Of a stretch of 53,646 bases of DNA, positions 17,187 through 51,671 are shown in pieces. The notes beneath the pieces were generated by a model. That model saw nothing but the letters and a program-made list of their open reading frames with translations. It was not told the DNA's origin and made no database searches. The DNA lies in assembly GCA_009885285.1 (NCBI GenBank), contig VFKX01000093.1, positions 1 through 53,646 on the forward strand. The letters run 5' to 3'. Source of the stretch: Candidatus Falkowbacteria bacterium (GTDB lineage Bacteria > Patescibacteriota > Patescibacteriia > Patescibacteriales > UBA12465). The stretch's first letter is position 1; every line of letters starts with the position of its first letter. The position numbers and the translations under genes are program-made.

Positions 17187-17214
17187 AAAGGCCGTTACTA
17201 CAACGGCCTTTTTT
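17187..17214 (+). terminator. Intrinsic terminator
   Basis: AAAGGCCGTT-ACTAC-AACGGCCTTTTTT. Confidence 0.85.
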
Positions 17215-17246
17215 ATAGCTATATTACTTCGATTATTGCCTATTAC

Positions 17247-17275
17247 TTGACAATTATACTTAAATATGATATATT
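17247..17275 (+). promoter_or_regulatory. Strong sigma70 promoter of accessory unit
   Basis: TTGACA-17 nt-TATATT with TGn extended -10. Confidence 0.75.
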
Positions 17276-17386
17276 TAATTTATCAATAGATCTTTAATAA
17301 TATTGTTTAAATTGGATTAATTATTAAATCCGCCTAAGTTAGGCGAACTTATAGTTAATCTAATTATTCATTAATAACTTATAATC

Positions 17387-17623
17387 ATGGCAACAGGAAA
17401 TTGTCCCCATTGTGGAGCTTATAAAACTGGTCTTGAACCGAATAAAACTTACGAGTGCTGCAAATGCGGCAAAGACTACTCAACGTTCTCTAATTATAGA
17501 ACTGAAAGCTCAGTCATGGAAAGTCAGCGCCAGTCAATTGCTTCTAACTTTACAAAGCTTGAAAAAGCTCTGGAAATTGTCAGCGGTGCTTGGGTGATGA
17601 ACAAAATATGGAAGAGTCTTTAA
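17387..17623 (+). CDS. Small zinc-ribbon-like hypothetical protein
   Basis: CPHCG...CCKCG; has its own promoter and terminator. Confidence 0.65.
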   Translation: MATGNCPHCGAYKTGLEPNKTYECCKCGKDYSTFSNYRTESSVMESQRQSIASNFTKLEKALEIVSGAWVMNKIWKSL

Positions 17624-17642
17624 ATAGAGTCACAAAATTGCG

Positions 17643-17673
17643 AGGGAAGGACTAGTAATAGCCTTCCTTTTTT
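17643..17673 (+). terminator. Intrinsic terminator
   Basis: AGGGAAGG-ACTAGTAATAG-CCTTCCTTTTTT. Confidence 0.8.
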
Positions 17674-17680
17674 ATTTGTA

Positions 17681-17708
17681 TTGACAAAAATGTGTAATAT
17701 TATATAAT
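17681..17708 (+). promoter_or_regulatory. sigma70 promoter
   Basis: TTGACA-16 nt-TATAAT. Confidence 0.7.
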
Positions 17709-17739
17709 TTTTTCATATAATACCTTAATAATTTATTTA

Positions 17740-17970
17740 ATGGAAAAGCTTTGGAAAGTCTTGATAATGGTATTTCTGATATTATTTTGTCTGGGAATAC
17801 TCTCATTTATTAGTTCTTATGCCCTAGATTTGATGTTTGGTGCCCAGGCCCATATGTGCATGTGTCTGAATGAAATTGGTATCGCCGTCGCTAGCGTTTC
17901 AGTAATAGGAATATTAGTAGCCACCTCGAAGTATCTAGTCCATCTCTATGGTTCAAGAAGGATCGGATAA
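17740..17970 (+). CDS. Small 2-TM membrane protein
   Basis: Two hydrophobic helices; lies between a promoter and a terminator. Confidence 0.65.
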   Translation: MEKLWKVLIMVFLILFCLGILSFISSYALDLMFGAQAHMCMCLNEIGIAVASVSVIGILVATSKYLVHLYGSRRIG

Positions 17971-18000
17971 GATTAACTTTTACTAGAGTACTTACAGTAA

Positions 18001-18029
18001 TAGCCGCCTAGTATAGAGCGGCTTTTTTA
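18001..18029 (+). terminator. Intrinsic terminator
   Basis: AGCCGC-CTAGTATAGA-GCGGCTTTTTTT. Confidence 0.8.
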
Positions 18030-18058
18030 TTGACAAAAATGGGCAAATACCGTAAAGT
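18030..18058 (+). promoter_or_regulatory. sigma70 promoter abutting the terminator
   Basis: TTGACA-17 nt-TAAAGT; a second TATAAT at 18064-18069. Confidence 0.65.
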
Positions 18059-18116
18059 AGGGCTATAATAATTGATATATTGTCCCTTAACATAGTAATA
18101 ACTAAATATTCGTACC

Positions 18117-18455
18117 ATGAAGACAAATGTGTTCACTAATGAAGATGTTAAACAGGCGAATCTAAAGTCCATTAAATTGCGCCAAGAATCTAAAGAGAGT
18201 CTCGATCGTTTTAAGAGGTATTTCCGCCAGTGTTTATTAATTGTTTCAACTGTCGCTCCGCTCACTTACTTAATTATCTGGTTGATTGATAAGTCGTTTC
18301 AGCTGAATGAGATATTGATTTCAGGATCTTACATATTTTTGGCTGTAATCGTCATTGTTCTGATAATCGCGCTAATCGGTTTAAACGCTAATATCCACCG
18401 GTTAAATAAACAGAACAGAGGAACGTCAGTCACGCCGCTTGATGATTCTTTATAG
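18117..18455 (+). CDS. Small 2-TM membrane protein
   Basis: Charged N-terminal helix followed by two TM segments. Confidence 0.7.
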   Translation: MKTNVFTNEDVKQANLKSIKLRQESKESLDRFKRYFRQCLLIVSTVAPLTYLIIWLIDKSFQLNEILISGSYIFLAVIVIVLIIALIGLNANIHRLNKQNRGTSVTPLDDSL

Positions 18456-18487
18456 TCAATAATAATCATAATTAAACTTGTGTAAGA

Positions 18488-18790
18488 ATGAAGAAAAAGA
18501 AAGTTCGCCAGCCGGATATTTTGACGGCCAAGAGGTTTAATAATGCTCATTTGCGGCTGCCCGGGGTAATTAATAAATCACAGATAGTTATTGCCTGCAT
18601 GTTCTTTATCAGCAGTATTTATCTGGCTCTGAGTGCAGTCTTTAGTGCGTGGTCTCTGAATTGGCCACTGATATTTATTCTCGCTCTACTTCTTGTCGTT
18701 TATGTAGCGCTGAGAATAAAGGCTAGGCGTCTACGCAGTCTGATTGCTTGGAAACGTGTTAATGACGGCCTGGGTATCAGGTTGAAATAG
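18488..18790 (+). CDS. Small basic 2-TM membrane protein
   Basis: Two TM segments with basic termini. Confidence 0.65.
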   Translation: MKKKKVRQPDILTAKRFNNAHLRLPGVINKSQIVIACMFFISSIYLALSAVFSAWSLNWPLIFILALLLVVYVALRIKARRLRSLIAWKRVNDGLGIRLK

Positions 18791-18818
18791 ATTTAGTGTT
18801 TATCTAATATTGTAAGTA

Positions 18819-19187
18819 ATGAAAGAGAATGACAATGAACAATTGGGTGACAATGAAGTTGAGGAGTCCGAGCTTGAGAGCCGAACTAAATACCAGAGTT
18901 ATGGAGCAAAACTGTTCGAATTAACTCAGCAAGCTTATTCGGGCCTAAAGCTGGTGAGAAGCTATAAAAAAAGAGATAAGGTTTTTAGAATAACCCTTAT
19001 ATCTTTATTGACAATCGCTATATTGCTTATCAGTGTCGATAAGTTGCTCACCGATTTAGGTCTGTGGGCTTATCGCTGGCCCGTCATTCTGATGCTTAGT
19101 ATTCAAGCCATTAGGTTTGTCGATCTGGTAATTTTGAACCGGAGCTTAGATAATTTGCATAGTAGTCCTCGGAAGCCTGTAAAATAG
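18819..19187 (+). CDS. Small 2-TM membrane protein
   Basis: Acidic N-terminus then two TM segments. Confidence 0.7.
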   Translation: MKENDNEQLGDNEVEESELESRTKYQSYGAKLFELTQQAYSGLKLVRSYKKRDKVFRITLISLLTIAILLISVDKLLTDLGLWAYRWPVILMLSIQAIRFVDLVILNRSLDNLHSSPRKPVK

Positions 19188-19236
19188 CTCGTAATAATCC
19201 CTAGTCAATGGAGTTTGTGGGAATTAATTTATTGTT

Positions 19237-19264
19237 TAGCCGTTATTTAAATAGCGGCTTTTTT
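19237..19264. terminator. Terminator between convergent genes
   Basis: AGCCGTTATTTAAATAGCGGCT-TTTTT. Confidence 0.75.
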
Positions 19265-20072: not shown

Positions 20073-20216
20073 AATGTAATTATTATATCTCTATTTTACT
20101 ATATTATTTTAACTGGCGATAGCTTGACATGGATAAGATAAATTGTCATCTTAAATCATTTTTATTTTGCTTGCTTTTTTGCTATAATAAGCTTATCTAA
20201 TTCGTATTCTTTCTTT

Positions 20217-20711
20217 ATGAAAAAAACTCCTAAAATTGATAAGCAAGATATTAGAAAGTCGGTTGTTGTGGCTGTTTCCGGGTATTTTAATCCGCTTCAT
20301 GTCGGCCATTTGGAAATGATCCAGAAGGCTAAAAAACTGGGCGATGAGCTGGTCGTGATTATTAATAACGATATTCAGGTCGCCTTGAAGGGCAGCGTTC
20401 CGTTTATGCCTTTAGCTGATCGTATTAAGATTGTTAAAGCCTTGCGCGATGTTGATCGAGTTTTTGTTTCTATCGATAAGGATAAGACTGTGTGTAAGTC
20501 ATTAATTAAAGTTCGTCCGAATATCTTTGCTAATGGTGGCGATCGCCACAGCATCGGCGATGTCCCGGAATATCCGCTTTGCCAGAAATATGACATTAAA
20601 ATGGTTGACGGCTTGGGTAGAAAAATCAGAGCCAGCTCACAATTAATTGCTAATGCGGCCGCCCTGAAAGAACAGCAGGCAAAAATTGAAAAAAAACGAA
20701 ATAAGGTTTAA
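20217..20711 (+). CDS. Cytidylyl/adenylyltransferase family protein (HxGH; TagD/RfaE/FAD-synthase-like)
   Basis: SGYFNPLHVGH, FANGGDR, RASSQLI. Confidence 0.85.
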   Translation: MKKTPKIDKQDIRKSVVVAVSGYFNPLHVGHLEMIQKAKKLGDELVVIINNDIQVALKGSVPFMPLADRIKIVKALRDVDRVFVSIDKDKTVCKSLIKVRPNIFANGGDRHSIGDVPEYPLCQKYDIKMVDGLGRKIRASSQLIANAAALKEQQAKIEKKRNKV

Positions 20712-20713
20712 TT

Positions 20714-21661: not shown

Positions 21662-21665
21662 GCTT

Positions 21666-30281: not shown

Positions 30282-30309
30282 AAAAAAAGCTATCTAATGG
30301 ATAGCTTTT
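30282..30309. terminator. Bidirectional terminator
   Basis: AAAAAAAGCTATC-TAATG-GATAGCTTTT. Confidence 0.8.
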
Positions 30310-30319
30310 ATGGTTATTG

Positions 30320-30571
30320 CTACAGGTAATACTTTTCCGTTTTCTTTCTAATTACCGACAGGTATACTGGATGATTTGATTTCCTGATCTTAATGTAAAT
30401 TCTGTTTAAAATTTGAAAAGGGAACTTAGCTATCGCCATAGCGTTAGTCAGCACCTCCTTTGTCCTAAACATTAGGTCAATTGAATTGGCAATATACTCT
30501 GGACTGGCGCCGTTCGCGTGTCCAGGCAGAAGCTCTTGAATAACTCTCTTCTGTTTTTGGCTGAATTTCAT
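30320..30571 (-). CDS. Hypothetical protein
   Basis: 83-aa ORF starting 2 nt after the upstream stop and followed by a terminator. Confidence 0.55.
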   Translation of the reverse strand: MKFSQKQKRVIQELLPGHANGASPEYIANSIDLMFRTKEVLTNAMAIAKFPFQILNRIYIKIRKSNHPVYLSVIRKKTEKYYL

Positions 30572-30573
30572 AA

Positions 30574-30819
30574 TTATTCTTCCGGCTCGTTATCTCCTGA
30601 CTTTGTCTCCGGTGTCTTTGGCAATGCTTCGATTATCCGTACGATGGGATAGAACATAAAACTGGATAAAACAATAATTGAGAGAATCATGACAAAGAAG
30701 GGCACCTTGGTGCAGACAGCGAAGACTTCTGACAGGGCAATAACGGTAAATGCAGCTAAAAGCATGGAAATTGTCCAGCTAAAGCTGAGTACAAGTGGAT
30801 TGATTTTTTTCTTATTCAT
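30574..30819 (-). CDS. Small 2-TM membrane protein
   Basis: Two TM segments; promoter TTGACA(30876-30871)-17 nt-CATACT upstream. Confidence 0.65.
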   Translation of the reverse strand: MNKKKINPLVLSFSWTISMLLAAFTVIALSEVFAVCTKVPFFVMILSIIVLSSFMFYPIVRIIEALPKTPETKSGDNEPEE

Positions 30820-30914
30820 CTTTTATATTTTAAAGTTCGATGCTAATAGTATGGTACATACTTTGGATAATGTCAAGTTATATGTAAAATTGCTAGTAAT
30901 TTTAGCTAAAATAT

Positions 30915-30944
30915 AAAAAAGCCATACTTTAAGGTATGGCTTTT
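30915..30944 (-). terminator. Intrinsic terminator
   Basis: AAAAAAGCCATAC-TTTAAG-GTATGGCTTTT. Confidence 0.8.
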
Positions 30945-30960
30945 GCATTTTTTGATGAAT

Positions 30961-31290
30961 TTAAGCACTTTTTTTGATTGATTGTTTATCAAGTAGCTTA
31001 GTTATTGGATTGATAAGTAGCACGTCGATGACAACTGCTGGGACTATTATCATATAAACTGGGGTATTCAATATAAACTGACGAGGATTTGGTAATATTA
31101 GCATGAAAATTATAAACAAAGCTATTGTTAAAATTAATGCATAGCATATTGCTATAATCATATTATCAAAGTGTTTACGTTCTTTTTTGGTTTCTTCTAA
31201 TTCCTCTTTCCACATATCAGCCATATCTCGGCCATGGTTTATCAGTATTTTTACAGAATCATTATCTTCTGTTAATTCTTTCTTTTCCAT
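30961..31290 (-). CDS. Small 2-TM membrane protein
   Basis: Charged N-terminus then two TMs; promoter TTGACA(31371-31366)-17 nt-TATGAT. Confidence 0.7.
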   Translation of the reverse strand: MEKKELTEDNDSVKILINHGRDMADMWKEELEETKKERKHFDNMIIAICYALILTIALFIIFMLILPNPRQFILNTPVYMIIVPAVVIDVLLINPITKLLDKQSIKKSA

Positions 31291-31375
31291 TTTTTGAATT
31301 ATTTAATTGTTAATAATACGAAATTTCTTATTTATTGATTATATCATATCATTTATCTGGTATTTTGTCAAGGCA

Positions 31376-31407
31376 AAGAAAAAGCCTCAGTTTAGTGAGG
31401 CTTTTCT
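31376..31407 (-). terminator. Terminator after gatB
   Basis: AAAAAGCCTCA-GTTTAG-TGAGGCTTTT. Confidence 0.8.
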
Positions 31408-31419: not shown

Positions 31420-32943
31420 TTATTTTAAAGCTTTTTCCAGTGCTTCCTTGGCGAGTTTGGGATTGGCCTTACCTTGGGTTTCGGCCATCAGCTTGCCAAG
31501 CAGGAACTGGATGACATTAACCTTGCCGGCTCTATATTGGGCAGTTTGATCGGGATTGGCATCCAGAACTTTCTGGGCGGCTTTGTCCAAAGTAGCGCTA
31601 TCATCAATCTGCTCGAGGCCGGAATCGCGCATAATGTCAGTGGGGTCGCCACCTTTGGCATACATTTTTTCTAAAATATTCTGACCGGTGGTGGAATTAA
31701 TCTTGCCTTGGTAGATTAGGCAGGTTAATTCGGCGAAATTTTCCGGTGTGATTTTCAGGTCGGCAATGTTTTTATTATCGGCATTCAAGTGCTTAAGCAG
31801 AGGACCGCTGATCAGGTTGGCAGCGGCTTTGGCTAGGCGCCTTTCCTGACGGGCTTCATCATCGCCGTTTGCTTCTATCCAGGCATCAAGCTCAGATATT
31901 ACTTCCTCGGTCCAATTGGCCAGTTTCTTGTCGCTAGTTAAAACATCGGACATTTCGGGAGAGAGCTTGTATTCTGAAATGAAGCGTTGTCTCTTGGCAC
32001 CGGGCATTTCCGGCAATTCTGCGGTCAGGCGTTCCAGCCAGGCATCGTCAATAACTAGAGGAGGAATATCTGGTTCAGGGAAGTAGCGGTAGTCAGCGGC
32101 CGTTTCCTTGACGCGCTGGCTGACAGTTTGGGATTTATTTTCATCCCAGCCTCTGGTTTCAGCGACTATTTTTTCTCCAGCCTCGAGCGCTTCTGTCTGC
32201 CGCTTGATTTCAAAATTAATGGCTTTTTCAACGGAGCGGAAGGAGTTAATATTCTTAACTTCTACCTTCGGGTTCAGTTCATTAGTTCCGCCAAAAATAC
32301 TTTTTTTCTTCGGAACAATCAGCCCATCCTTATATTCCCAGCTGCCGGCTTTCTGCACACTGACATTAGCTTCGCAGCGCATCTCGCCTTGTTCCATATC
32401 CGCGTCGCTGACGCCGAGGTAGCGCAGGACTTGCTGGAAGGCTTGGCAGAATTTCTTGGCTTGCTCGGCGCTCGCAATCACTGGCTCGGTGACCATCTCC
32501 ATTAGCGGCGTACCGGCCCGGTTAAAGTCGAGCAGGGTATAATCAGAATCTTTTTTATGGGTCGATTTACCAGTATCCTCTTCTAAATGGATACGGGTAA
32601 TTTGGATATTATCGCCGTCCACTTCCAGGCTTGCCTCGTAAACCAGGGGCTGGTCATATTGGGTAATCTGGTAGCCTTTAGGCAAATCCGGATAGAAATA
32701 ATTCTTGCGGTCGAACTTGGACGAACGGTTAATCTTGCCGTGCAGAGCTAGGCCTGTGAGAATGGTCGCGTCAATTGCTTTGATGTTCGGGACTGGCAAA
32801 GTGCCTGGATGACCGAGGCAAATCGGGCAGACAGCAGTATTGGCAGCCAGGCCAGCAGAGTCGTTATTGCAGGAGCAGAACATCTTGCTCTTGGTTTTTA
32901 ATTCGGCGTGGATTTCCAGGCCGATGATGGTATCGTATTTCAT
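31420..32943 (-). CDS. gatB: Asp/Glu-tRNA amidotransferase subunit B
   Basis: IGLEIHAEL, FDRKNYFYPDLPKGYQITQ, IHLEEDTGK, NRAGTPLMEMVTEP, DYRYFPEPD. Confidence 0.98.
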   Translation of the reverse strand: MKYDTIIGLEIHAELKTKSKMFCSCNNDSAGLAANTAVCPICLGHPGTLPVPNIKAIDATILTGLALHGKINRSSKFDRKNYFYPDLPKGYQITQYDQPLVYEASLEVDGDNIQITRIHLEEDTGKSTHKKDSDYTLLDFNRAGTPLMEMVTEPVIASAEQAKKFCQAFQQVLRYLGVSDADMEQGEMRCEANVSVQKAGSWEYKDGLIVPKKKSIFGGTNELNPKVEVKNINSFRSVEKAINFEIKRQTEALEAGEKIVAETRGWDENKSQTVSQRVKETAADYRYFPEPDIPPLVIDDAWLERLTAELPEMPGAKRQRFISEYKLSPEMSDVLTSDKKLANWTEEVISELDAWIEANGDDEARQERRLAKAAANLISGPLLKHLNADNKNIADLKITPENFAELTCLIYQGKINSTTGQNILEKMYAKGGDPTDIMRDSGLEQIDDSATLDKAAQKVLDANPDQTAQYRAGKVNVIQFLLGKLMAETQGKANPKLAKEALEKALK

Positions 32944-37157: not shown

Positions 37158-37994
37158 ATGGACCTCTCAATCATTATTGTGTCTTGGAACGTTAAAGATA
37201 AGCTCAAAGCTAACTTAGAGGCTCTTTTTAATTCAGAAGGAGTAGCTCATTTTGAAGTTTTTGTAGTTGATAATAAATCTGATGATGGCAGCGCGGCCAT
37301 GGTTAGAGCTGATTTCCCACAGGTCAGGCTAATTGAAAATCAAGAAAATCTGGGCTTTGCCAAAGCCAATAATCAAGCTATTAAATTAGCCAGTGGCCGC
37401 TTTATCTTATTGCTTAATCCGGATATGCGCGTCCGGCCGGATACCTTGAAAAATATTTTGGTTTGGATTGAAGATAATATGCCGGTTACCGTCTGCGGCT
37501 GCAAGTTAGTTGATGAGCAGGGTGCTGTCATTAAGCAGGTCCGCCGCTTTCCGAAGTTATTTGATCAATTAATGGTCACCTTAAAAGTTCCGCATATTTT
37601 TCCAGGAGTAATTAATTCCTATTTGCAAAGTAAATTTGATTATAGTCAGGCGGCTCGTGTTGATTCTATTCGCGGCGCTTTTTTCTTGATTAATACTGAG
37701 GCTTATAAGAAAATCAGTGGGTTGGATAAACCGTTTTTAGATGAAAGCTATTTTGTGTGGTTTGAAGAAGTTGATTTTTGCCGAGAAGTTTATCGCCTGG
37801 GCGGGGAAGTCTGGTATACGCCGACGGCTGAATGCGTTGATTATGTCGGAGCTAGTTTTAATCAATTGAAGAAGGGCAAGGCTCAAGAATATTTCAGCGA
37901 TTCCATGCTCAAATATTTTCAGAAATGGGAGCAGAGAGGTGATTATCTGATATTGCAAGCCGCCTGGAAAGCCGTTAGATTGCTGATAAAATAA
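37158..37994 (+). CDS. GT2 glycosyltransferase (WbbL-like)
   Basis: SIIIVSWN, VVDNKSDDGS, NLGFAKANN, LLNPD, FEEVDFC. Confidence 0.9.
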   Translation: MDLSIIIVSWNVKDKLKANLEALFNSEGVAHFEVFVVDNKSDDGSAAMVRADFPQVRLIENQENLGFAKANNQAIKLASGRFILLLNPDMRVRPDTLKNILVWIEDNMPVTVCGCKLVDEQGAVIKQVRRFPKLFDQLMVTLKVPHIFPGVINSYLQSKFDYSQAARVDSIRGAFFLINTEAYKKISGLDKPFLDESYFVWFEEVDFCREVYRLGGEVWYTPTAECVDYVGASFNQLKKGKAQEYFSDSMLKYFQKWEQRGDYLILQAAWKAVRLLIK

Positions 37995-38000
37995 ATATTT

Positions 38001-39068
38001 ATGAATAAAAAAGTCGGAATTATCCTGATTAACTACAAAGACTACGCGGCCCGCTTCTTGGAAGCCTGTCGCGATTCTTTGCGTGCTCAGGATTATCCAG
38101 CCGAGCTTACTAAGATTTACATAGTCGATAACGCTTCGACTCTGGAAACTGAGAAATACCTGCATGATATTTATCCTGAGGTTATTGTTTTGACCCGCTC
38201 TGACGGTAACTATGCGGCCGCTAATAATCTTGGCTTTTATCGAGCCATGCAGGATGGCTGCGAGTATTTGGTAACGGCCAATATGGACACAGTGATGGCT
38301 TCCGCCTGGCTTTCGGAGTTAGTTAAGGCTCTAAATGATAACCTGGAGGCCGGCATTGCCCAGTCAAAAATATTATTATTCCCGCGCACTGAGGAAGAGA
38401 AGAAGAGTCCGCGCCTCAATAGCCTCGGCAATATTATCCATTTTTTAGGCTTCGGCTTTACCTCTGGCTATGGCGAGCCTGATAGACAAGTTGCTGGTTA
38501 TCCGGAAATCAAAGGTTATGCCAGCGGTTGCTCATTTATTATTCGGGCAGAAATTTTTAAAACAATCGGCGGCTACAGCGAGGAATTCTACATGTATCAC
38601 GATGATTTGGAATTAAGTCTCAAGGTTCGCTTGGCAGGGCATAAGATAATCTTGGCGCCGCAATCAATAATATTTCATAAGTATGAATTTTCCCGCAGCG
38701 TCCGCATGCTCTATTATATGGAACGAAATCGTTATTTGACTATTCTAATATATTACCCGAATCGCCTGTTCTGGCTGATTTTGCCGCCTCTACTCGCTAT
38801 GGATCTAGTGATGCTTGCTTATTCGCTGGTAGCGGGCTGGTCAAAAGAGAAGCTGAGGATTTGGCAATACTTCTTGCGCCATGAAAACTTCGAAAAAGCA
38901 CGGCTGGTGCGTGAGGGGGTGAATAAATATAAAGTTATAAATTTTTCCGATATCGCCAACGATTTTGCCGGTCGAATTGAATTTCAGGAAATTGCGAATC
39001 CGCTTTTGAGATATATTGGCAATCCTCTCATGGCCGGGTACTGGAAACTAATCAAGAAAATTATTTAA
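38001..39068 (+). CDS. GT2 glycosyltransferase
   Basis: ILINY, IVDNAS, AANNLG, ANMDT, SGCS, MYHDDLELS. Confidence 0.9.
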   Translation: MNKKVGIILINYKDYAARFLEACRDSLRAQDYPAELTKIYIVDNASTLETEKYLHDIYPEVIVLTRSDGNYAAANNLGFYRAMQDGCEYLVTANMDTVMASAWLSELVKALNDNLEAGIAQSKILLFPRTEEEKKSPRLNSLGNIIHFLGFGFTSGYGEPDRQVAGYPEIKGYASGCSFIIRAEIFKTIGGYSEEFYMYHDDLELSLKVRLAGHKIILAPQSIIFHKYEFSRSVRMLYYMERNRYLTILIYYPNRLFWLILPPLLAMDLVMLAYSLVAGWSKEKLRIWQYFLRHENFEKARLVREGVNKYKVINFSDIANDFAGRIEFQEIANPLLRYIGNPLMAGYWKLIKKII

Positions 39069-39077
39069 GGTAATTAT

Positions 39078-39893
39078 ATGGATTTATCAATTGTGATTGT
39101 AAATTATAAGAGCCGGGATAAGCTTTTGAATTGCTTGAAGTCAATCGCCGGAATGACGAGTCCTGATATTGCTTATGAAGTAATAGTGGTTGATAACGCT
39201 TCTGGCGATGATTTGAGCGGTTTAATGGAAGTCTATCCTGAGCTGCAATTAATTGAGAGTCCGAATAATCTGGGTATGGGCGGCGGAAATAATCTTGGTA
39301 TCACGGCCGCTCAGGCTCCCTATGTTTTTATTCTTAATCCGGATACAGTTATTCAAGGAGAGGTGATTTCCGTATTGTTTAATTACCTTAAGGCTCATCC
39401 GACTGTCGGTCTGGTAGGGCCGAAATTATTATATCCTGACGGATCCCTGCAATTATCTTGCTCCCGCTTTCCGAGTTTCTTTATGCCGCTCTTGCGGCGG
39501 ACTTTCTTGGGTGAATATTTTAAGACGGCACGTGACCGCTTTACTATGACGGATTTTGACCATAATTCCATTAAGCCGGTTGACTGGCTCATGGGCTCAA
39601 GTCTAATGTTCCGTAAAGAGATTGCCTTAGCCGACGGCAGTCAGTTCTTGCCGCGGTTTGATGAGCGTTACTTTATGTATTTTGAAGATATCGATCTGGC
39701 TCGTCAGTTCTGGACAAATGGTTTTCAGGTGGTCTATAATCCAGAGGCAGTCATTATCCATGACCATCAGCGCCAGAGCGCCAAATATCCTTGGTATATT
39801 GCCGTCATCGTCGATCGGTCCGCTTGGTGGCATATTCAGTCCTGGCTTAACTATTTTGCAAAATGGGGGTTAAGATCCCATAAAAATAAATAA
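39078..39893 (+). CDS. GT2 glycosyltransferase (WbbL-like)
   Basis: VIVNY, VDNAS, NLGMGGGNN, LNPD, FDERYFMYFEDIDL. Confidence 0.9.
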   Translation: MDLSIVIVNYKSRDKLLNCLKSIAGMTSPDIAYEVIVVDNASGDDLSGLMEVYPELQLIESPNNLGMGGGNNLGITAAQAPYVFILNPDTVIQGEVISVLFNYLKAHPTVGLVGPKLLYPDGSLQLSCSRFPSFFMPLLRRTFLGEYFKTARDRFTMTDFDHNSIKPVDWLMGSSLMFRKEIALADGSQFLPRFDERYFMYFEDIDLARQFWTNGFQVVYNPEAVIIHDHQRQSAKYPWYIAVIVDRSAWWHIQSWLNYFAKWGLRSHKNK

Positions 39894-39894
39894 T

Positions 39895-40767
39895 ATGAAA
39901 AAAATTCGCAAAGCAATATTCCCAGTAGCCGGCTTTGGTACCCGTTTCCTGCCAGCCACTAAAGCTCAGCCGAAGGAGATGCTGATGGTGGTTGATAAGC
40001 CGGTTATCCAGTACTTGGTGGAGCAGGCGGTGGCGGCTGGTATTGAAGAAATTATCTTCGTGACGGGACGCGGCAAACGCGCCATTGAAGATCACTTCGA
40101 TTATTCTTTTGAATTAGAAAAGACCTTGGTAGAGAAAAATAAGCTCGACTTATTGCAGAAGGTTAAGGAAATCGAGAACCTAGCGAAGTTTTCATATGTC
40201 CGCCAGCCTATTCCATTAGGAGACGGGCATGCGGTTCTATGCGCGGCTCATTTAGTTGAGGAGGATGAGCCGGTGCTTATCATGTTCGGCGATACTTTGT
40301 ATGATGCGGCTGTCCCGCCGATTAAGCAAGTTATCGATCTCTATGAAAAATATGGCGATCCGGTAGTGGGATTATCCGAGGTTGATAAGAGCGAAGTGAA
40401 TAGGTATGGAGTAATTTCCGGAACTGATTTAGGAGAGGGGAACTTTGAAATCAAAAAGTTTATAGAAAAACCTAAAGTCGAGGAAGCTCCGTCAAACTTA
40501 GCGGCTGTCGGCATTTATGTTATTACTCCAGAGGTGCTTACTGTCTTGGGAACCATGCAGTCAGGTAAGTCTGGCGAAATCCGTTTGGCTGATGCCTTTG
40601 ATTTGATGTTGGAAAATAATCGTCCGCTGTACGGCAAGAAAATTGAAGGGGAATGGCTGGATACCGGTAATAAATTTAATTTTTTGAAAGCTTCGATTAA
40701 GTTCGGCTTGAAGGATGAAGAAATCGGTAAGGATTTGCAGAAATTGATCAATGAGCTGGCGAAATAA
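39895..40767 (+). CDS. galU: UTP-glucose-1-phosphate uridylyltransferase
   Basis: KAIFPVAGFGTRFLPATKAQPKEML, VRQPIPLGDGHA, GEIRLAD. Confidence 0.95.
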   Translation: MKKIRKAIFPVAGFGTRFLPATKAQPKEMLMVVDKPVIQYLVEQAVAAGIEEIIFVTGRGKRAIEDHFDYSFELEKTLVEKNKLDLLQKVKEIENLAKFSYVRQPIPLGDGHAVLCAAHLVEEDEPVLIMFGDTLYDAAVPPIKQVIDLYEKYGDPVVGLSEVDKSEVNRYGVISGTDLGEGNFEIKKFIEKPKVEEAPSNLAAVGIYVITPEVLTVLGTMQSGKSGEIRLADAFDLMLENNRPLYGKKIEGEWLDTGNKFNFLKASIKFGLKDEEIGKDLQKLINELAK

Positions 40768-40798
40768 TTAGTGGAATTAAAATACATTCTTAGGCAAT

Positions 40799-40826
40799 AA
40801 AAAAGCTACTGAAAACAGTAGCTTTT
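40799..40826. terminator. Bidirectional terminator
   Basis: AAAAAGCTACTG-AAAA-CAGTAGCTTTT. Confidence 0.85.
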
Positions 40827-40861
40827 AAGTGTAAATTTAATTTGTTTTAAATAATATCACT

Positions 40862-41311
40862 TTAAGGATTAGTAGTTCTTGGTCGAAATATCATCGATCC
40901 ACCGCCATCCTTTAATGTGAAAATAAGATAGTCATCATCAATTCGATAACTTTCCGTGTTCATGATGCCGTTCATGTATTCGTATTCCTGACTTTCTTCG
41001 CAACCATCAGTATCAGCACCAGTGAAGGAACCGAAAGATATTTTATCCCCGTTTAGTTGATATTGGGCTCTGTAATTATTGCAATCGGACGTGCAGAATA
41101 TGGTGTCATTCATATTAAAGAATAGTCCGAAAGAAGCGGCTAGTTTTGGTCTGATCGAGCCAGTACCGCTTTTATAAAAACTGACCCATTGCCAACTGGT
41201 GTTCTGTATCGAAGTTACCGGTTTTCTTTGGCTGGTCTGGCTGTAGGCTGATGAACCTAACGGCATAATAGCGAATAGAGCTATTACTAAAAAAATCATT
41301 CGAATTCTCAT
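40862..41311 (-). CDS. Secreted META-domain (HslJ-like) protein
   Basis: Signal peptide; W.W, DCNNY...Y, ISFG, C, Y.I...L, GGSMIF pattern; own promoter TTGACA(41375-41370)-17 nt-TATAAA. Confidence 0.75.
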   Translation of the reverse strand: MRIRMIFLVIALFAIMPLGSSAYSQTSQRKPVTSIQNTSWQWVSFYKSGTGSIRPKLAASFGLFFNMNDTIFCTSDCNNYRAQYQLNGDKISFGSFTGADTDGCEESQEYEYMNGIMNTESYRIDDDYLIFTLKDGGGSMIFRPRTTNP

Positions 41312-41375
41312 GGTATCTCTTTTTAGAATGTTAAATAACTGTCAACTTTATATCATTTATAACTGATATTGTCAA

Positions 41376-42704
41376 TTATTGTAAAATAATCTTATAGACT
41401 CCAGACTCCTGTCCCTGCCGTGCCCAGAAATAGAGGATATTTTCTTTCTTGTCTAAAACTGTGCCAGAAATTTTGTCAGTCGCATATACCTTAGTAGCCG
41501 TATTCATTTTCATATCAAGAGCATTTAGGCTATTGGCGGTTGAGAAAATCAAATAATTATTGTCGCCGTTCCAGATTATTTTTGTAATCTCTTCACCGAC
41601 GCGGGTTAACAAATCAGAGCGGCCAGCATTGAGGCTGAAACGAAAGATTTCCCATTTATTATGGTAGAGCAGAGCTTCATCGTCAAGCCATTGCCAGCTG
41701 ACGGCATTCTTGATCGTCTGGCTGCCGCTATGGAGGTTGTTAGGGTTTAATAAATACAGGGTCTGGTTCTGCAAGTCGTAAAGGACTAGTGATTGTGCGC
41801 TATCGGAACGGAATTCGTATTGGCCAACTGCTGGAAGATTTAACTCATCGACAATCTTCATGGCTGTTAATGAATATTTTTTGACAGAAGTCCGGCCGTT
41901 ATTGGTCGAGACGTAAAACAGGTCATTACCTCGCGGCTCATAAGTTTCAAATGTTTCGCCGCTGACAGCGGAAACACTAGTTTTGCTCGATAACTTTAAA
42001 TAGCTGATAGCATTCTTGTTCTGGTAGTAGAGGCGATTTTCACTTTCATCATAGAACCAATTATCAGTACCTGCGCCGATTAATTTTTCATAGTCAAGAT
42101 CATCTGCCGCGTCAGCGCCGTAAATATTGCCGGCTGATAATAGTTTATCGCTATTGTTTAGCCAGGCTGCTTTGTCGCTGTCAGTCGGGATGATCCGAGT
42201 GGTATTATTTTTTAGGGTAATCATGGCTTTAGTTGCCGGAATATAGAGATGTTTTCGGCTCGCACTCAATTGCGGTTCTGTTTCCGAACTGGCTAAAAGA
42301 AGCATCGGGGTGTCATTCTTGAAGAGGTTAATATCTTCGACGAAGCTGGTTTGGCCGGAATAGACATTTATTTTTTTTTGAAATGGCCAATAGCCTTCGC
42401 GCTCGAGGCGCAAGGTATATTCTCCCGGCAGGACATTTTTTACTTTGGCGGCTGTAGTTAAGTACTCGGTCTTAAAAGGGTTGAGTGAGAGGTTTGATTG
42501 CGGGACATCGTTTAAGAAAACGACGGCGCCGCTCGGCACAGAGTCAACGGCAATCATGCCAGTTTTAATAAGCAGGCGGTTTAGCTTCGGCGGCCAGCTC
42601 AGGTTAAATTTATATCCGGAGGCATAGAGGGAAATCAGGATAGTACCCGTGACAAAAAAGAATATGAAAAAATAAAAGATGTAATCCCTGGTTTTTTTGG
42701 TCAT
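41376..42704 (-). CDS. PEGA-domain membrane-anchored protein with beta-propeller-like C-terminus
   Basis: YASGY...KTGMIAVDSVPSGAVVFLN...LPGEYTLRLEREGYWPFQKKI. Confidence 0.8.
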   Translation of the reverse strand: MTKKTRDYIFYFFIFFFVTGTILISLYASGYKFNLSWPPKLNRLLIKTGMIAVDSVPSGAVVFLNDVPQSNLSLNPFKTEYLTTAAKVKNVLPGEYTLRLEREGYWPFQKKINVYSGQTSFVEDINLFKNDTPMLLLASSETEPQLSASRKHLYIPATKAMITLKNNTTRIIPTDSDKAAWLNNSDKLLSAGNIYGADAADDLDYEKLIGAGTDNWFYDESENRLYYQNKNAISYLKLSSKTSVSAVSGETFETYEPRGNDLFYVSTNNGRTSVKKYSLTAMKIVDELNLPAVGQYEFRSDSAQSLVLYDLQNQTLYLLNPNNLHSGSQTIKNAVSWQWLDDEALLYHNKWEIFRFSLNAGRSDLLTRVGEEITKIIWNGDNNYLIFSTANSLNALDMKMNTATKVYATDKISGTVLDKKENILYFWARQGQESGVYKIILQ

Positions 42705-47283: not shown

Positions 47284-47913
47284 TTAAATGATGATGGTAA
47301 TATCGTAGGAGTATTTTTTTCTGTATTCGTCAATCCAGGTTAATATTGCTTTTAATAATTTAGTGTCAGGATAATTGATAGTGATGGTGCCATATTTTGA
47401 TTTATTTCTATAGGTGCCCTTTTTCCCCTCTTGAAGGAATGATTTGTAAAAGTTGCAGAGTGGTATACCAGTGGTTCTTGTCCAGAACTTAATTAGCTTG
47501 GCTTCGTTATGATCTGGGTAAATATGAATTAGGGCTTTTAATCGACTCTCGTCTACACCGCAGATTACTCGCAAAAAATCCAGAAACAACCTAATCATGG
47601 CCGGGTCGCTATTAGTGAATTTAACAACGTTCATTGTTTTAGCGCCCTCGCCCCAATACAGCATGATTCCGGCAGTCTTTAAATTAGCATCCGTGTCAGT
47701 TATTATGGTCTTTAATTGAAACGGCTTCTTATTCTGCTTGATGGCATACCAGTAGTTAATAGCCTCTGAACGTGACCTTCTGGGCGTACCTGATTTGTCC
47801 AGATGGTATCTAATTGTTGAAACTGACAGCTTTAGCTTCGACGCTATTTGAGCCATCGACATTTTCTTGCTTAAATACATGTCAGGAATTGTTTTTGCGA
47901 TATTTTTGTTCAT
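47284..47913 (-). CDS. HTH plus LAGLIDADG-like protein (tRNA-adjacent type)
   Basis: N-terminal MSMAQIASKLKLSVSTIRYHL HTH; AGIMLYWGEGAK and FTNSDP motifs. Confidence 0.75.
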   Translation of the reverse strand: MNKNIAKTIPDMYLSKKMSMAQIASKLKLSVSTIRYHLDKSGTPRRSRSEAINYWYAIKQNKKPFQLKTIITDTDANLKTAGIMLYWGEGAKTMNVVKFTNSDPAMIRLFLDFLRVICGVDESRLKALIHIYPDHNEAKLIKFWTRTTGIPLCNFYKSFLQEGKKGTYRNKSKYGTITINYPDTKLLKAILTWIDEYRKKYSYDITIII

Positions 47914-48012: not shown

Positions 48013-48017
48013 CTGGG

Positions 48018-48278: not shown

Positions 48279-48369
48279 TCGTATAATAAAACGGCCATAT
48301 AAATGAGCTAGTTTTATTACAAAGTTGATAATATCAAAAGTTTTCCCATTTGACAAGGGCTATAGAAAT

Positions 48370-48397
48370 AAAAAAGGCCTAATTTATACTAGGCCCT
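48370..48397 (-). terminator. Intrinsic terminator
   Basis: AAAAAAGGCCTA-ATTTATAC-TAGGCC. Confidence 0.75.
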
Positions 48398-48428
48398 TTG
48401 CTTGAAGATTTGCTATTAGTCGCGCTTA

Positions 48429-48749
48429 TTACATGCCGCAAGAATAACTGACTGTTTCATTAGACTTAATGACGACGTTGGCGGTGCTGCAGCCTGTGCC
48501 GTCGTTGCCCACTAATTCCCAGACATATACCCCTGGACAGAGCTTGATGTCCTTCTTTTCGCCAGGTGTAAGCGTTCCTTTGTTTTCGCCGTTGACAATA
48601 ATCTGCTGGGTAACGCTTCTCGTACTAGTGTTGGTCAGGCTAAGCGTTCCTTGAACGCAGGGGTTAATCTTTTCCTTTTCGCAACCATTACTGAAAATGG
48701 TTAAGGCAATGATAGTTGTTAATACGAGTAAAATCTTAAATTTATTCAT
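48429..48749 (-). CDS. Putative lipoprotein, paralog of 50411-50740
   Basis: Basic N-terminus, hydrophobic core, FSNG-C-EKE lipobox; small Cys-containing beta-rich domain. Confidence 0.75.
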   Translation of the reverse strand: MNKFKILLVLTTIIALTIFSNGCEKEKINPCVQGTLSLTNTSTRSVTQQIIVNGENKGTLTPGEKKDIKLCPGVYVWELVGNDGTGCSTANVVIKSNETVSYSCGM

Positions 48750-48803
48750 GATTACGACTTTTTAAGTGATACTATTAATTGTTAATTTGCTTGAAGACAT
48801 TAT

Positions 48804-50183
48804 TTATTCGTATCGGGCCAGACTGCCATTAAGGCTCTGTCCAGTTTGCAATTTATCCTTTCTGATAACTGTTTGTCGAACAAATACCCTCTTGATGATA
48901 TCGCCATTTTCGTCCCGCAGGTGGCGGAAGTGGCCGCGCCGCAGATGGGGAGGCATCTCCCGGCCAGTATTTATTTTTATCTTTTGCCCTTTACTTCTTT
49001 TTTTCGGGGCAGTGATATAGGTAATACTGCTGCTTAAAACCTCAAACCACTTTGGTTTCTCGGTTATTAGCGCATCCTGAGTGATAGCGCTTGGTTCCAT
49101 ATAACTGTCGGCTATTTCGGTTTGTTCGGTCAGCTCACCTAAATCGGAGCAGTCATAGAGTTTGATGTTCTGAGGCGGTTCATAGTCGGCAAATAGTTTC
49201 CCGATACCGTTTAAAAGAAAGGGGAGAGCGTTCCAGGTCCAATCTTCTCTAATTAGGCGGAAGACAGCTTCACTGGAATCAGCTTCTTGGTAGACCAAAC
49301 CTCTCAGGGTTTCTATGAGATCGATGGAACCTAAGGAATAATTTTGGTCATAGACCAATAATTTTCCGGTCGACATATCAAGCTTCATTAGACTGAATTC
49401 AGAGACTAGATTGTTATAGCACTGATTTGATACAAATAGTTTGTTGAGTGCTCTTAAAGCTTTAGCGCTATTTGTTTTCTTAGACAGGCCATAAATTTCT
49501 TTAACGGCATCATGCTGGGCTTCGTTTAGGAGGACATCTTTGACATCTCCGGGAATGGAAAACATTGTTAAGATATTTTCTTCTCTGCAGATTACGTGAG
49601 TGCTGTAGTAACCGAAATGAACTGCTTCTTGACGGTTATCGTCGACATAAGTTTTTTTCAGCGGTTTATCCAACGTCAGGATAAAATTATCGTATGGCAG
49701 ATAAGCTAAGTAATTTTCCTTCCCAGGGTCGGCTAACGGAATATTTTCCGGGTGAGATATTTCACATATTTTTTTTCCTTTTAGCCACTTTTCCAGATAA
49801 ACGGGAATCAAGAATCTTCCAACGCTAGATATATCTTGATAAATTGACTCAATAAAATCTAGTTTAGTCGAAAACTTATCCCGCCAGCTTTTAGGAATGC
49901 GCGGCAGAAATTGCTCAGGATTAAAACTTTGCTGTGTGTCGAGAAAGCTGCGTAGGCGCTTATATCCTTCAATTCCTCGTCCCAGGGTAAATATGCCGGT
50001 GAGTTCTGAGCCGGTCAGTGTGCCGTGATTTATTCTATTTTCCTCATTGTTCAGACTCGCATGGTTTGGCAAAATTTTCTGACAGATATAGAATTTTAAA
50101 TCTCCTAAGAAATTAAATTCTTCCCAATATTGCAGGCATTGCTGTAATTGGATAAGTGATAGCAATTCATCAATTCTTTTCAT
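48804..50183 (-). CDS. Hypothetical protein with C-terminal PHLRRGHFR motif
   Basis: 459-aa ORF with its own promoter (TTGACT-18 nt-TATATT); HxRRGHxR motif. Confidence 0.75.
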   Translation of the reverse strand: MKRIDELLSLIQLQQCLQYWEEFNFLGDLKFYICQKILPNHASLNNEENRINHGTLTGSELTGIFTLGRGIEGYKRLRSFLDTQQSFNPEQFLPRIPKSWRDKFSTKLDFIESIYQDISSVGRFLIPVYLEKWLKGKKICEISHPENIPLADPGKENYLAYLPYDNFILTLDKPLKKTYVDDNRQEAVHFGYYSTHVICREENILTMFSIPGDVKDVLLNEAQHDAVKEIYGLSKKTNSAKALRALNKLFVSNQCYNNLVSEFSLMKLDMSTGKLLVYDQNYSLGSIDLIETLRGLVYQEADSSEAVFRLIREDWTWNALPFLLNGIGKLFADYEPPQNIKLYDCSDLGELTEQTEIADSYMEPSAITQDALITEKPKWFEVLSSSITYITAPKKRSKGQKIKINTGREMPPHLRRGHFRHLRDENGDIIKRVFVRQTVIRKDKLQTGQSLNGSLARYE

Positions 50184-50361
50184 TATTTGCTTTTATTTAG
50201 TTACCGCAGGGAGTTTTTGTAACCTCTCTCCGGCAACTAAATAAAAGTAATTTTTAAAGGACTGTGACCAAAAAATATAGCATAATCTCCCGCTTTAAGT
50301 CAATAATGAGGAATAATATTAATGATACGTGATTAATAATGCGGGATCTATGTCTTTAAAT

Positions 50362-50391
50362 AAAAAACCCTCATTATTTGCTAATGAGGGT
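50362..50391 (-). terminator. Intrinsic terminator
   Basis: AAAAAACCCTCATTA-TTTGC-TAATGAGGGT. Confidence 0.8.
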
Positions 50392-50410
50392 GGGGCATAA
50401 AAAGGGTCGA

Positions 50411-50740
50411 TTACTTACCGCTACAAGAATAGCCTTGATCTTCGCAAGCCACGATATTTACCTTAGCAGCACTGCAGCCAGTACCACCACTTAAACCAAC
50501 TAATTGCCAGTCATAAGTGCCGGGAGTGAGTTCGATTGATTTTTTATTGCCGGGATCCAGCGATCCATAGTTCACGCCATTGATCATGATACGCTGGACA
50601 GTGGTCAAGCTTTTATTTGTCAGAGTGAGCGTACCTTTTCCAGTACAAGGGCTGGCATCCAGTTTATCGCATGACAAATTAATGGACAGGGCAGCTATAA
50701 ATATGGCTGCCATTAGCAAAGCAAAATTAATTTTTTTCAT
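50411..50740 (-). CDS. Putative lipoprotein, paralog of 48429-48749 (start at ATG 50740)
   Basis: MKKINF...INLS-C-DK lipobox; aligns without large gaps to the 106-aa protein. Confidence 0.75.
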   Translation of the reverse strand: MKKINFALLMAAIFIAALSINLSCDKLDASPCTGKGTLTLTNKSLTTVQRIMINGVNYGSLDPGNKKSIELTPGTYDWQLVGLSGGTGCSAAKVNIVACEDQGYSCSGK

Positions 50741-50856
50741 CGCTACGTCTTTTAAATTAATACTTGAGTTTTTAACTAACTGCCTAAACGCTACCATATC
50801 TAAGTATAATTGTAAATAGGGAATGACTGGATGCGCCGAGTAGCTCTTTTAGTTAT

Positions 50857-50894
50857 AAAAAAGGCCTTGAGATAAATGTATTATCCTAAGGCCT
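50857..50894 (-). terminator. Intrinsic terminator
   Basis: AAAAAAGGCCTT...AAGGCCT. Confidence 0.7.
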
Positions 50895-50911
50895 GGCATT
50901 TGTGCGAGTGT

Positions 50912-51463
50912 TTAATGTTTTTTCCAGTAGTACCAGAAGGGCTTTTTCTGTTTGAATGGCACTTCTTTTTTTTCACCATAGATATCGACTCCTTGTGGGA
51001 CGTGATTCACAGGCTCTTTACCCCAATACACTAAATTGAGCGTAATGGAAACGAGGGCTGATCCGGTCAATGCTCCGCCTAGGTCGTACTTTAAATCTTC
51101 GCGGCTGTAAAATCCGCCGTTGTTCTGGTCGTGGACTTCTTTTAAGTGTCCGGCAAGGGAAGTTAGTCCAATGCCTAGTCCAGCCCCAATAAGTCTGCTC
51201 TGCCACCACTTTAAGCCAACTTTATTGTATAAAACTTGCTGGCTTAGCATCTCTATGCTAAATGAAGACATAGTGCAAATAGTGAAATGGTTAAACTTAT
51301 CTTCGGGCATTCCTAAGTAGGTTTTGTCTTCAGATATAACTTTACTGTTGTAGGCTAAGCTGTTAAATTTGAGCGCTGGGTCGTTGAAATTCGTTTCGGT
51401 GAACTGGGCGCTGGTTGTTATAACAAGTGCCAATAATACTAAAGTAAACGCGAACTTTTTCAT
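50912..51463 (-). CDS. Secreted/membrane YfiM (DUF2279)-like protein
   Basis: Signal peptide ending TSA-Q; DKFNHF, KEVHD, GGFYSREDLKYDLGG motifs. Confidence 0.65.
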   Translation of the reverse strand: MKKFAFTLVLLALVITTSAQFTETNFNDPALKFNSLAYNSKVISEDKTYLGMPEDKFNHFTICTMSSFSIEMLSQQVLYNKVGLKWWQSRLIGAGLGIGLTSLAGHLKEVHDQNNGGFYSREDLKYDLGGALTGSALVSITLNLVYWGKEPVNHVPQGVDIYGEKKEVPFKQKKPFWYYWKKH

Positions 51464-51671
51464 TTTTATTTATTTTTGATTATTAATGAATGATTAGACA
51501 AAGGTCGGGGTCATAAAATTAAGGCTCCGGCCTTTGTCTAATCTCCAAAATATCAAATTTGTGAAAGGGCTAGTCTTGATTAAATTAGCATTGTTTACGG
51601 ATATTGTCAAGAGCTGGGCGGGACAGGAGCAGATCTGAGGGATATTTTGACTTGGCGTTAAAATAGGTAAT

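Follow-up and report, generated by a model that had tools for sequence, protein, structure and literature searches.

The 53,646-base contig VFKX01000093.1 of a Candidatus Falkowbacteria bacterium (assembly GCA_009885285.1), analyzed here over its entire length and referred to as the window, belongs to a 1.43-Mb bin of 118 contigs with a GC content of 42.5% (bin G000, in which it is contig C8). Its long genes are housekeeping genes: PBP2, hrcA-grpE-dnaK-dnaJ, the F-ATPase operon, uppP, an mltG-like gene, miaB, miaA, gatB, tmk-dut, thyX, glycosyltransferases, murA, recR, ybaB and dnaB. A sequence-only reading of this DNA had pointed to four regions, at 17.2-19.2, 30.3-31.4, 40.8-41.4 and 48.4-51.6 kb, where the housekeeping backbone is interrupted by expression units with small orphan open reading frames (ORFs), and had proposed that non-coding modules shared by these units form an integron-like system for capturing or shuffling genes. 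Our analysis indicates that the four regions are probably accessory gene islets, located at permissive junctions of a conserved Patescibacteria chromosome and built of ordinary promoter-to-terminator units. Several of these units carry a short leader motif that recurs before many other genes of this genome.

Window proteins were compared by tblastn with the syntenic loci of genus relatives, using 12 loci for the first half of the window and eight for the second. Between about 8.4 and 47.1 kb, the backbone and these loci are collinear, and synteny with all relatives stops past dnaB. The proposed interruption of the backbone was borne out at the first three regions, which are insertions at conserved junctions, but only in part at the fourth, because the closest relative, G007, has tRNA-Thr, tRNA-Lys and a lipoprotein orthologue (63% identity) there. 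At the first site, between the gene at 16209 or atpC and uppP, the gap measures 80-120 bp in six of the ten loci that span it; the other four gaps, each of them with unrelated genes, measure about 0.56 kb (G010), 0.77 kb (G007), 4.4 kb (G014) and 5 kb (G018), and G010 also carries 2.3 kb with groES-groEL-like genes across uppP from this site. The second site (miaA/gatB) is occupied by 10-100 bp in six of eight loci, and the third (NTP-transferase gene/PEGA gene) by 12-119 bp in seven of eight. Taken over the three sites, the gap is no longer than 10-140 bp in most relatives. A single hairpin with a T-run was present in 13 of the 18 short spacers examined in relatives and in none of the five shortest, and a terminator tail in which a T-run is followed by ATT is visible in most relatives' spacers as well. 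The larger inserts of relatives contain unrelated genes (for a membrane protein, groES-groEL-like proteins, a Fib_succ_major lipoprotein and others), so that ordinary genes, such as the groES-groEL-like genes of G010, are also found at these junctions. All three sites therefore combine conserved core flanks with contents that differ among relatives, and the outcome anticipated by the sequence-only reading, different cargo at the same junctions, is indeed seen across the genus genomes, with cargo that is orphan where tested. The inserts are AT-rich, with a GC content of 0.33-0.36 vs 0.425 for the genome; for the units, the GC content per kb is 0.34-0.40.

Gains of this kind are not confined to the window. 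Relative to G007, extra DNA of at least 300 bp lies at 36 of 488 conserved junctions genome-wide (convergent, 13 of 39; co-directional, 19 of 409; divergent, 4 of 40), and some of it holds long ordinary-looking genes. The bias toward convergent junctions is what retention at harmless sites predicts; a literature search on insertion at convergent genes found nothing relevant. Gene calls for the genome-wide counts were our own and crude (longest ORF with a codon-score filter). Only 38 contigs of the bin (877 kb) act as a lineage chromosome, many others (e.g. C9, C72, C104, C99, C105, C39) are without any gene in common with G007, and the bin probably includes foreign or mobile DNA.

The orphan character claimed for the ORFs holds for 12 of the 13 cargo proteins, which have no Pfam family, while the thirteenth is a META-domain lipoprotein. 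Searches of the 68 other genomes of the genus, and likewise global searches, covered three of these proteins. That encoded at 18819-19187 was found in none of the 68 genomes and matched only itself among 5.8 billion clusters; that at 30961-31290 was found in none of the 68 and matched only itself among 1.84 billion representatives. The third, of 459 aa, has one marginal C-terminal match (E 2.9e-4) in one of the 68 genomes, as well as 12 unnamed homologues of 28-43% identity that have in common a conserved C-terminal basic motif. Against PHROGs, NCBIfam and PADLOC, no cargo protein scored above the curated cut-offs, and only weak helix-turn-helix or membrane-protein noise was seen. Most of the small cargo ORFs are short and hydrophobic, with low coding scores of 5-15 in our own codon model.

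The signals that surround these ORFs are largely as described, and they are ordinary. Six of the eight promoters that had been named score 10-12 of 12 in our scan (17247, 17681 and 18030 on the + strand; 30876, 31371 and 50303 on the - strand), whereas those at 41375 and 51610 have a TTGACA but weak -10 elements (TATAAA and TAATTT) and were not listed by the scan. The terminators said to flank the units were confirmed, as terminator-like hairpins bracket every unit: the scan found them at 17187-17211, 19238-19259, 30285-30309, 30917-30944, 31379-31406, 40802-40825, 48372-48399, 50367-50391 and 51675-51698, and three more (about 17645-17673, 18002-18029 and 50857-50894) were recognized by eye only. 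Long leader hairpins are strong in three of the five leaders folded (z = -5.8, -4.9 and -3.0) and not in the other two. Judged by consensus only, the elements have the parts of sigma-70 promoters (-35, -10, 16-18 nt spacing) and of intrinsic terminators (GC-rich hairpin and T-run). Promoter-like sites exceed shuffled sequence in one part of the window only, with 65 vs 36.7 +/- 6.6 in shuffles at 16.5-32 kb and no excess, 39 vs 40.4 +/- 6.0, at 36-53.6 kb. Across the genome, promoters scoring at least 10/12 precede 29% of genes of up to 130 aa, 33% of those of 131-300 aa and 25% of those of more than 300 aa (n = 198, 202 and 190, respectively; at least 60 nt upstream), and 89 promoter-like sites of at least 11/12 lie in non-coding DNA. 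If genes absent from G007 are termed accessory and those present there shared, promoters at the 11/12 level stand before 26 of the 179 accessory genes and 31 of the 285 shared ones, which is not a significant difference.

The units had further been said to share non-coding sequence, a claim that survives in two exceptions. We compared 735 spacers genome-wide by all-against-all BLASTN (word size 7) with their dinucleotide shuffles; the median best hit was 28.2 bits vs 26.3 in shuffles, and the best hits of the unit spacers reached 26-34 bits vs 24-30 in their own shuffles, the sole unit-to-unit top hit among them being 19 nt long. The exceptions are the short leader motif and the promoter pair 17247(+)/50816(-), which stands ahead of unrelated genes and has 15 of 17 spacer bases identical; it is one of the three best pairs among about 1194 promoter-like sites, with none in a reversed-spacer control. 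Spacer matches of at least 60 bits occur for 18 of the 735 spacers, vs 0 in shuffles, and none of them lies in the window. The clearest repeated non-coding modules of the bin lie in a 4.8-kb segment of contig C2 (about 37369-42181) with no G007 counterpart and three long genes (342, 460 and 512 aa), whose upstream spacers have 83-85 nt in common at 92-94% identity; spacer repeats of 60-144 nt are also common to C9/C82 and to C56/C39/C59. The layout shared by the units is a genome-wide expression grammar and not a dedicated capture device.

The first region comprises three units on the + strand. In the first (17247..17673), a promoter at 17247-17275 (11/12) is followed by a leader motif at 17288-17307 (14.7 bits), a leader hairpin at about 17310-17365 (z -3.0), an ORF at 17387-17623 for a 78-aa protein with a CxxC...CxxC pattern and no Pfam match, and a terminator-like hairpin at about 17645-17673. 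The second (17681..18029) has a promoter at 17681-17708 (12/12), an ORF at 17740-17970 for a hydrophobic protein of 76 aa and a terminator-like hairpin at about 18002-18029. The third (18030..19259) has two promoters, at 18030-18058 and 18040-18069 (each 10/12), a weak leader motif at 18081-18100 (11.0 bits) and three ORFs, at 18117-18455, 18488-18790 and 18819-19187, whose products of 112, 100 and 122 aa all contain hydrophobic stretches; its terminator (19238-19259) lies between the last ORF and the convergent uppP. The remaining units are on the - strand. The second region consists of one unit at 30917..31406, with an upstream terminator (31406-31379), a promoter (31371-31343, 11/12), a leader motif (31319-31300, 12.7 bits), an ORF for 109 aa (31290-30961) and a terminator (30944-30917), and another at 30285..30876, with a promoter (30876-30848, 10/12), ORFs for 81 aa (30819-30574) and 83 aa (30571-30320) and a terminator (30309-30285).

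The single unit of the third region (40802..41375) starts with TTGACA at 41375 and a weak -10, and carries the best leader motif of the window (41340-41321, 16.5 bits) before an ORF at 41311-40862 that ends ahead of the terminator at 40825-40802; the encoded 149-aa protein has a META domain and a signal-peptide-like N-terminus, and its paralogues (32% identity) are on contig C27. Within the fourth region, the unit at 50857..51698 has an upstream terminator (51698-51675), TTGACA at 51610 with a weak -10, a leader hairpin (51543-51492, z -4.9), a leader motif (51492-51473, 12.4 bits), an ORF at 51463-50912 for a 183-aa protein with a weak YfiM-like match under the family cut-off, and a terminator-like hairpin at about 50894-50857. 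A promoter-like site at 50816-50788 opens the next unit (50367..50816), whose lipoprotein gene (listed as 50797-50411, with a likely start at 50740) is followed by a terminator at 50391-50367; this lipoprotein is the one with a 63% identical orthologue in G007, and it is 48% identical to the product of 48429-48749. The last unit (48372..50303) has a promoter at 50303-50274 (10/12), a leader hairpin at 50250-50187 (z -5.8), the ORF of the 459-aa protein of a rare unnamed family (50183-48804), the lipoprotein paralogue (48749-48429) and a terminator at 48399-48372.

The leader motif is the most distinctive component of these units. It had been described as a boxA-like 12-mer at the start of the transcript, which was upheld in part: C[CT]TTAA, a pattern selected after inspecting the units, occurs within 40 nt past the -10 in five of eight units vs 24 of 329 other promoters, and in an unbiased 12-mer test, which gave six of seven units, 1 of 60 random promoter sets equalled that result. 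Starting from the seed CTTTAACAA, 19 of whose 49 occurrences lie in the 18% of the DNA that is non-coding, an iterated weight matrix converged on the consensus AGTTCTTTAACAATTTAATA. In non-coding DNA, 103 sites reach 11 bits or more and 44 reach 16 bits or more. The 356 upstream regions contain the core TTTAACAA 18 times in the sense and 4 times in the antisense orientation (shuffles, 2.2 +/- 1.5). A start codon on the same strand follows within 40 nt at 40 of the 44 strong sites, and the motif ends a median of 12.5 nt upstream of the start codon. The 20-nt leader motif is thus real and common to some 45-100 other genes. Five of its six hits in the window fall inside the named units; the sole other hit is a weak copy (45723-45704, - strand, 11.5 bits) before a conserved ybaB-like gene.

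The check proposed for the capture idea, enrichment of a shared module before orphan as opposed to core genes, came out positive for this motif: at 13 bits or more it precedes 32 of 179 accessory vs 13 of 285 shared genes (odds ratio 4.6, p 4e-6, on the 38 lineage contigs, with kinship among genes and the gene calls as caveats). When the motif genes were scanned, 22 of 32 had no Pfam family, and the others have surface-type domains (Fib_succ_major, PKD, GHL15) or encode ProRS, a HAD hydrolase and a phosphoribosyltransferase. A signal-like N-terminus is predicted for 18 of 38 motif genes vs 76 of 357, and only 12 of 50 motif genes belong to paralogue groups. Sites of at least 16 bits number 55 in this bin vs 9 in G007. 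Literature searches on promoters, Shine-Dalgarno (SD) sequences or leader motifs of Patescibacteria or the candidate phyla radiation (CPR) brought up no paper on such a leader, which does not imply its absence from print.

Start-codon context separates the motif genes from the bulk of the genome. A T directly before the start codon, T(-1) in DNA and U(-1) in the transcript, is found as TATG in 76% of 568 conserved genes vs 24% of all ATG trinucleotides, and in 68-83% of the long ORFs of seven genus relatives; in the window it marks almost all starts of conserved genes, for example 5314, 11730, 29297 and 31420-32943 (minus strand). This context fits a four-base pairing of the transcript with initiator tRNA. 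Motif genes have T(-1) only at the background rate, in 2 of 13 shared genes and 8 of 37 accessory ones, and among the window cargo it occurs in 1 of 13, with 50740 taken as the lipoprotein start. Given that conserved genes stand at 76%, the motif therefore marks a distinct start-site class, which points to an RNA-level role for the leader. SD-like words precede 11% of robust genes overall and are commoner before strong-motif genes (29% vs 10%). The 16S rRNA of G007 carries a standard anti-SD tail, and complementarity of the leader motif to it is limited to trivial 7-mers. With the Rfam model a 16S gene was detected in G007 and G005 and not in G000 or G016; a conserved 16S word was also unmatched in the bin and in G007.

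Comparison with boxA, the binding site of NusB/NusE (S10), which occurs in mRNA leaders with the consensus GYTCTTTAANA (Baniulyte et al. 2017, PMC5725501), gives a mixed picture. The leader consensus contains GTTCTTTAACA, which fits this sequence, the motif lies within 50 nt of starts as in the start-codon screen described in that work, where 0-7 sites per gamma-proteobacterial genome are given, and a NusB gene is present. In contrast to boxA, the conserved core of the leader is TTAACAA with an A/T-rich 3' half, and C4 and T5 of boxA vary here. Exact matches to the published consensus number 25 genome-wide, and none is among the window leaders; only five lie no more than 50 nt ahead of a called start, vs the 44 strong sites that fit the looser motif; in the 500 nt before the G007 16S gene the best leader-motif match is 11.9 bits. 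With so few exact start-proximal matches, a differing core and only this 11.9-bit match before the G007 16S gene, membership in boxA is not established. The motif also recalls the non-SD, A-rich ribosome-binding motifs that, as the GeneMarkS-2 paper (PMC6028130) outlines them, precede most genes in 'group B' genomes: SD sequences are rare here too, and the start is preceded, at a distance of a few to about 20 nt, by an A/T-rich element. Unlike in group B as outlined there, the 20-mer stands before a minority class, and most genes carry T(-1) instead.

The islets themselves most resemble chromosomal hotspots of gene turnover that lack mobile elements and change by recombination at flanking core genes, in the account of Oliveira, Touchon, Cury and Rocha (2017, PMC5635113). 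Variable genome-specific genes between core flanks, different cargo at the same spots, the lack of integrase or transposase and, here, the presence of uptake genes (ComEC and DprA) agree with that account; the small size (0.6-3 kb, 1-5 short genes), the symbiont-type genome of about 1 Mb and the strong bias toward convergent junctions differ from it. In the reading that we hold to be likely, foreign or otherwise new DNA with short genes, mostly of membrane, lipoprotein or secreted types, would be kept where insertion is harmless, namely between convergent genes past their terminators and beside tRNA genes. Each islet would then be read as mono- or oligocistronic units, with a predicted sigma-70-type promoter, an A/U-rich leader mostly without SD sequence and an intrinsic terminator. 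From the junction bias, ComEC and DprA, and the published hotspots as that account presents them, the likeliest route of entry would be uptake, with integration either by recombination through conserved genes on the flanks or by illegitimate joining. For genes without T(-1), the leader motif may serve at the RNA level as a regulatory signal or as an alternative signal for translation initiation. A bolder version, which we offer tentatively and consider rather unlikely, is that the leader (AGUUCUUUAACAAUUUAAUA) marks a second expression route, a start-proximal RNA signal independent of U(-1), for which NusB/S10, S1 or a dedicated RNA-binding protein might be the reader and through which recently gained genes, mostly for surface or secreted proteins, could be translated or co-regulated. 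If so, its spread to dozens of unrelated genes would make it a portable leader that travels with incoming genes or is preferentially kept on them, a soft, recombinase-free form of the 'plug-and-express' idea.

Several observations weigh against the islet interpretation. Alignment of relatives, which had been suggested as a check, confirmed that cargo differs at the same junctions but did not place the breakpoints, as intergenic DNA is too diverged from the relatives' spacers for anything but terminator tails to align. For none of the cargo was a donor found. The accessory class rests on the single relative G007 and on crude gene calls, and therefore fast-evolving genes are possibly misfiled and some start codons misplaced. 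Promoters at the 10/12 level are somewhat commoner before accessory genes (75 of 179 vs 84 of 285, odds ratio 1.7, p 0.007). The 14-base core of the motif is commonest in this genome within the genus, with 24 matches vs 4 in a reversed control, compared with 434 vs 300 summed over the 68 other genus genomes. Finally, the islet reading does not account for the same 20-nt leader on unrelated genes, 38 of 50 motif genes having no paralogue among the other motif genes.

Some of these points also speak for a modular capture or shuffling system, in which shared promoter, leader or terminator modules would be short homology anchors or sites of recombination, allowing foreign ORFs to be inserted and expressed immediately: the same junctions carry different cargo in different members of the genus, the leader motif favors accessory genes and has its core commonest in this genome, the 17247 and 50816 promoters have nearly the same spacer, and the strongest spacer matches of the genome, though none in the window, are absent from shuffles. 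Two of the three observations that had been named as refuting this idea were accordingly not made, since cargo differs between relatives and is orphan, and the motif is enriched. The proposed role of the modules finds no support all the same, as the shared motif lies inside the transcript near the start codon and not at insert boundaries, the similarity does not continue beyond it, with unit spacers scoring at the level of shuffles, and the cargo is not bracketed by repeats. Nor did the unit spacers show a repeated boundary element, although very divergent attC sites could escape a search without a dedicated attC model. Consistent with the earlier statement that no integrase is visible, none of the bin's six tyrosine recombinase (PF00589) matches is on this contig; only one (on C1) is on a lineage contig, five are on contigs with few or no G007 genes, and there is no rve match above the cut-off and no resolvase match; no recombinase is dedicated to the lineage contigs. 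Alternative junctions, which capture might leave behind, were absent from the contigs of three runs of one study, which probably include the source sample, a weak test because these contigs have a low depth (about 3-8); the cargo was in place, with bridging pieces across four junctions and short loose ends near 31283 and 31317 that are uninterpretable. Integron cassettes share with these units unrelated orphan ORFs at defined places and intervening hairpin-forming sequence. They differ in that no IntI-type recombinase lies beside the sites here, that the hairpins are T-run terminators or leader stems not repeated elsewhere, unlike attC sites, and that every unit carries a promoter of its own, with units on both strands and at four dispersed loci, where integron cassettes are promoterless, in one orientation and served by a common Pc. 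Dispersed repeats of the MITE (miniature inverted-repeat transposable element) or REP (repetitive extragenic palindromic) kind fit no better, as there are no near-identical copies and Rfam finds only two tRNAs in the window. With a generic layout, shuffle-level spacer similarity, no recombinase on the contig, no alternative junctions, and relatives that have housekeeping genes at the same junctions, an integron-like mechanism is unsupported, and we regard a capture system as highly improbable.

Differential loss, whereby small genes ancestral to the genus were deleted in the relatives examined, would suit a group whose genomes are reduced (0.5-1.2 Mb), and part of the extra DNA relative to G007 does consist of long ordinary-looking genes. 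It is very unlikely given that three cargo proteins lack matches in the 68 genus genomes (apart from the marginal one of the 459-aa protein), that empty junctions resemble simple intact spacers with mostly one terminator, and that the inserts stand apart in composition and in the rarity of T(-1) among their genes. The small ORFs could alternatively be not (yet) functional, as chance or newborn ORFs in AT-rich spacers where T-rich sequence encodes hydrophobic peptides; their low coding scores, their shortness, hydrophobicity and low GC content, and the two that have no homologue at all are in keeping with this. We think it an unlikely explanation, because each ORF or group of ORFs lies in the correct orientation between a near-consensus promoter and a terminator and fills the space between them, and the META, lipoprotein and 459-aa cargo have relatives. 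Moreover, inserts of 1-2 kb have no counterpart in the short ancestral-type spacers, so the DNA did not grow in place. For the fourth region there is a further alternative, that 47.2-51.6 kb is what is left of a mobile element that had inserted next to tRNA-Thr and tRNA-Lys. Besides the two tRNA genes and the end of synteny past dnaB, it draws on a 209-aa protein with an N-terminal helix-turn-helix (47284-47913, - strand), located between dnaB and tRNA-Thr where G007 has no gene, which shows weak N-terminal likeness to phage HNH-endonuclease PHROGs (E 3e-6) and, on C62, has a paralogue of 40% identity. It also draws on the 459-aa protein, whose nearest neighbors by language-model features are mostly viral AcrVA2-like clusters (score 0.97, at a low recognition value of 1368). 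The AcrVA2-like identity was not confirmed and stays no more than a lead, as there is no Pfam match even at E 5, no PDB sequence matches the family profile, Foldseek with the AlphaFold model (mean predicted local distance difference test score 76.6) returned nothing from PDB at E <=0.001, and the best BFVD match (E 1.9e-3) is to uncharacterized phage proteins with TM (template modeling) scores of 0.2-0.3. The region also lacks an integrase, a direct repeat of a tRNA end and phage structural genes, and the lipoprotein next to the tRNAs is kept in G007; we consider a mobile remnant rather unlikely.

A capture system, if true, would have been remarkable; the evidence lends it no support. The islets are ordinary, and the parts worth following are the leader motif and the T(-1) dichotomy. 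Accessory islets offer a clear view of the way in which orphan membrane and secreted proteins enter the repertoire of a reduced and highly syntenic Patescibacteria genome; these proteins are candidates for host-interaction functions, and their genes arrive as tiny self-contained units, mainly at convergent terminators. The analysis also brings out two start-site grammars in one genome, with U(-1) in about three quarters of conserved genes and a 20-nt boxA-like leader in a minority that is mostly accessory. This is relevant to gene calling, to the expression of CPR genes in surrogate hosts and to translation start in lineages that rarely use SD sequences.

Two further features of the backbone are of note. 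The ORF at 34893-36182 (-) encodes a 429-aa Thy1 (ThyX) protein with counterparts of 71-79% identity in the syntenic loci of G005, G014, G011, G006 and G018, and no tblastn match to it was found in G007, G016 and G010, yet a gap of about 1.35-1.4 kb persists there, which may reflect in-place replacement by an unrelated gene. At 4107-4727 (+), GrpE carries an N-terminal DUF1653 domain.

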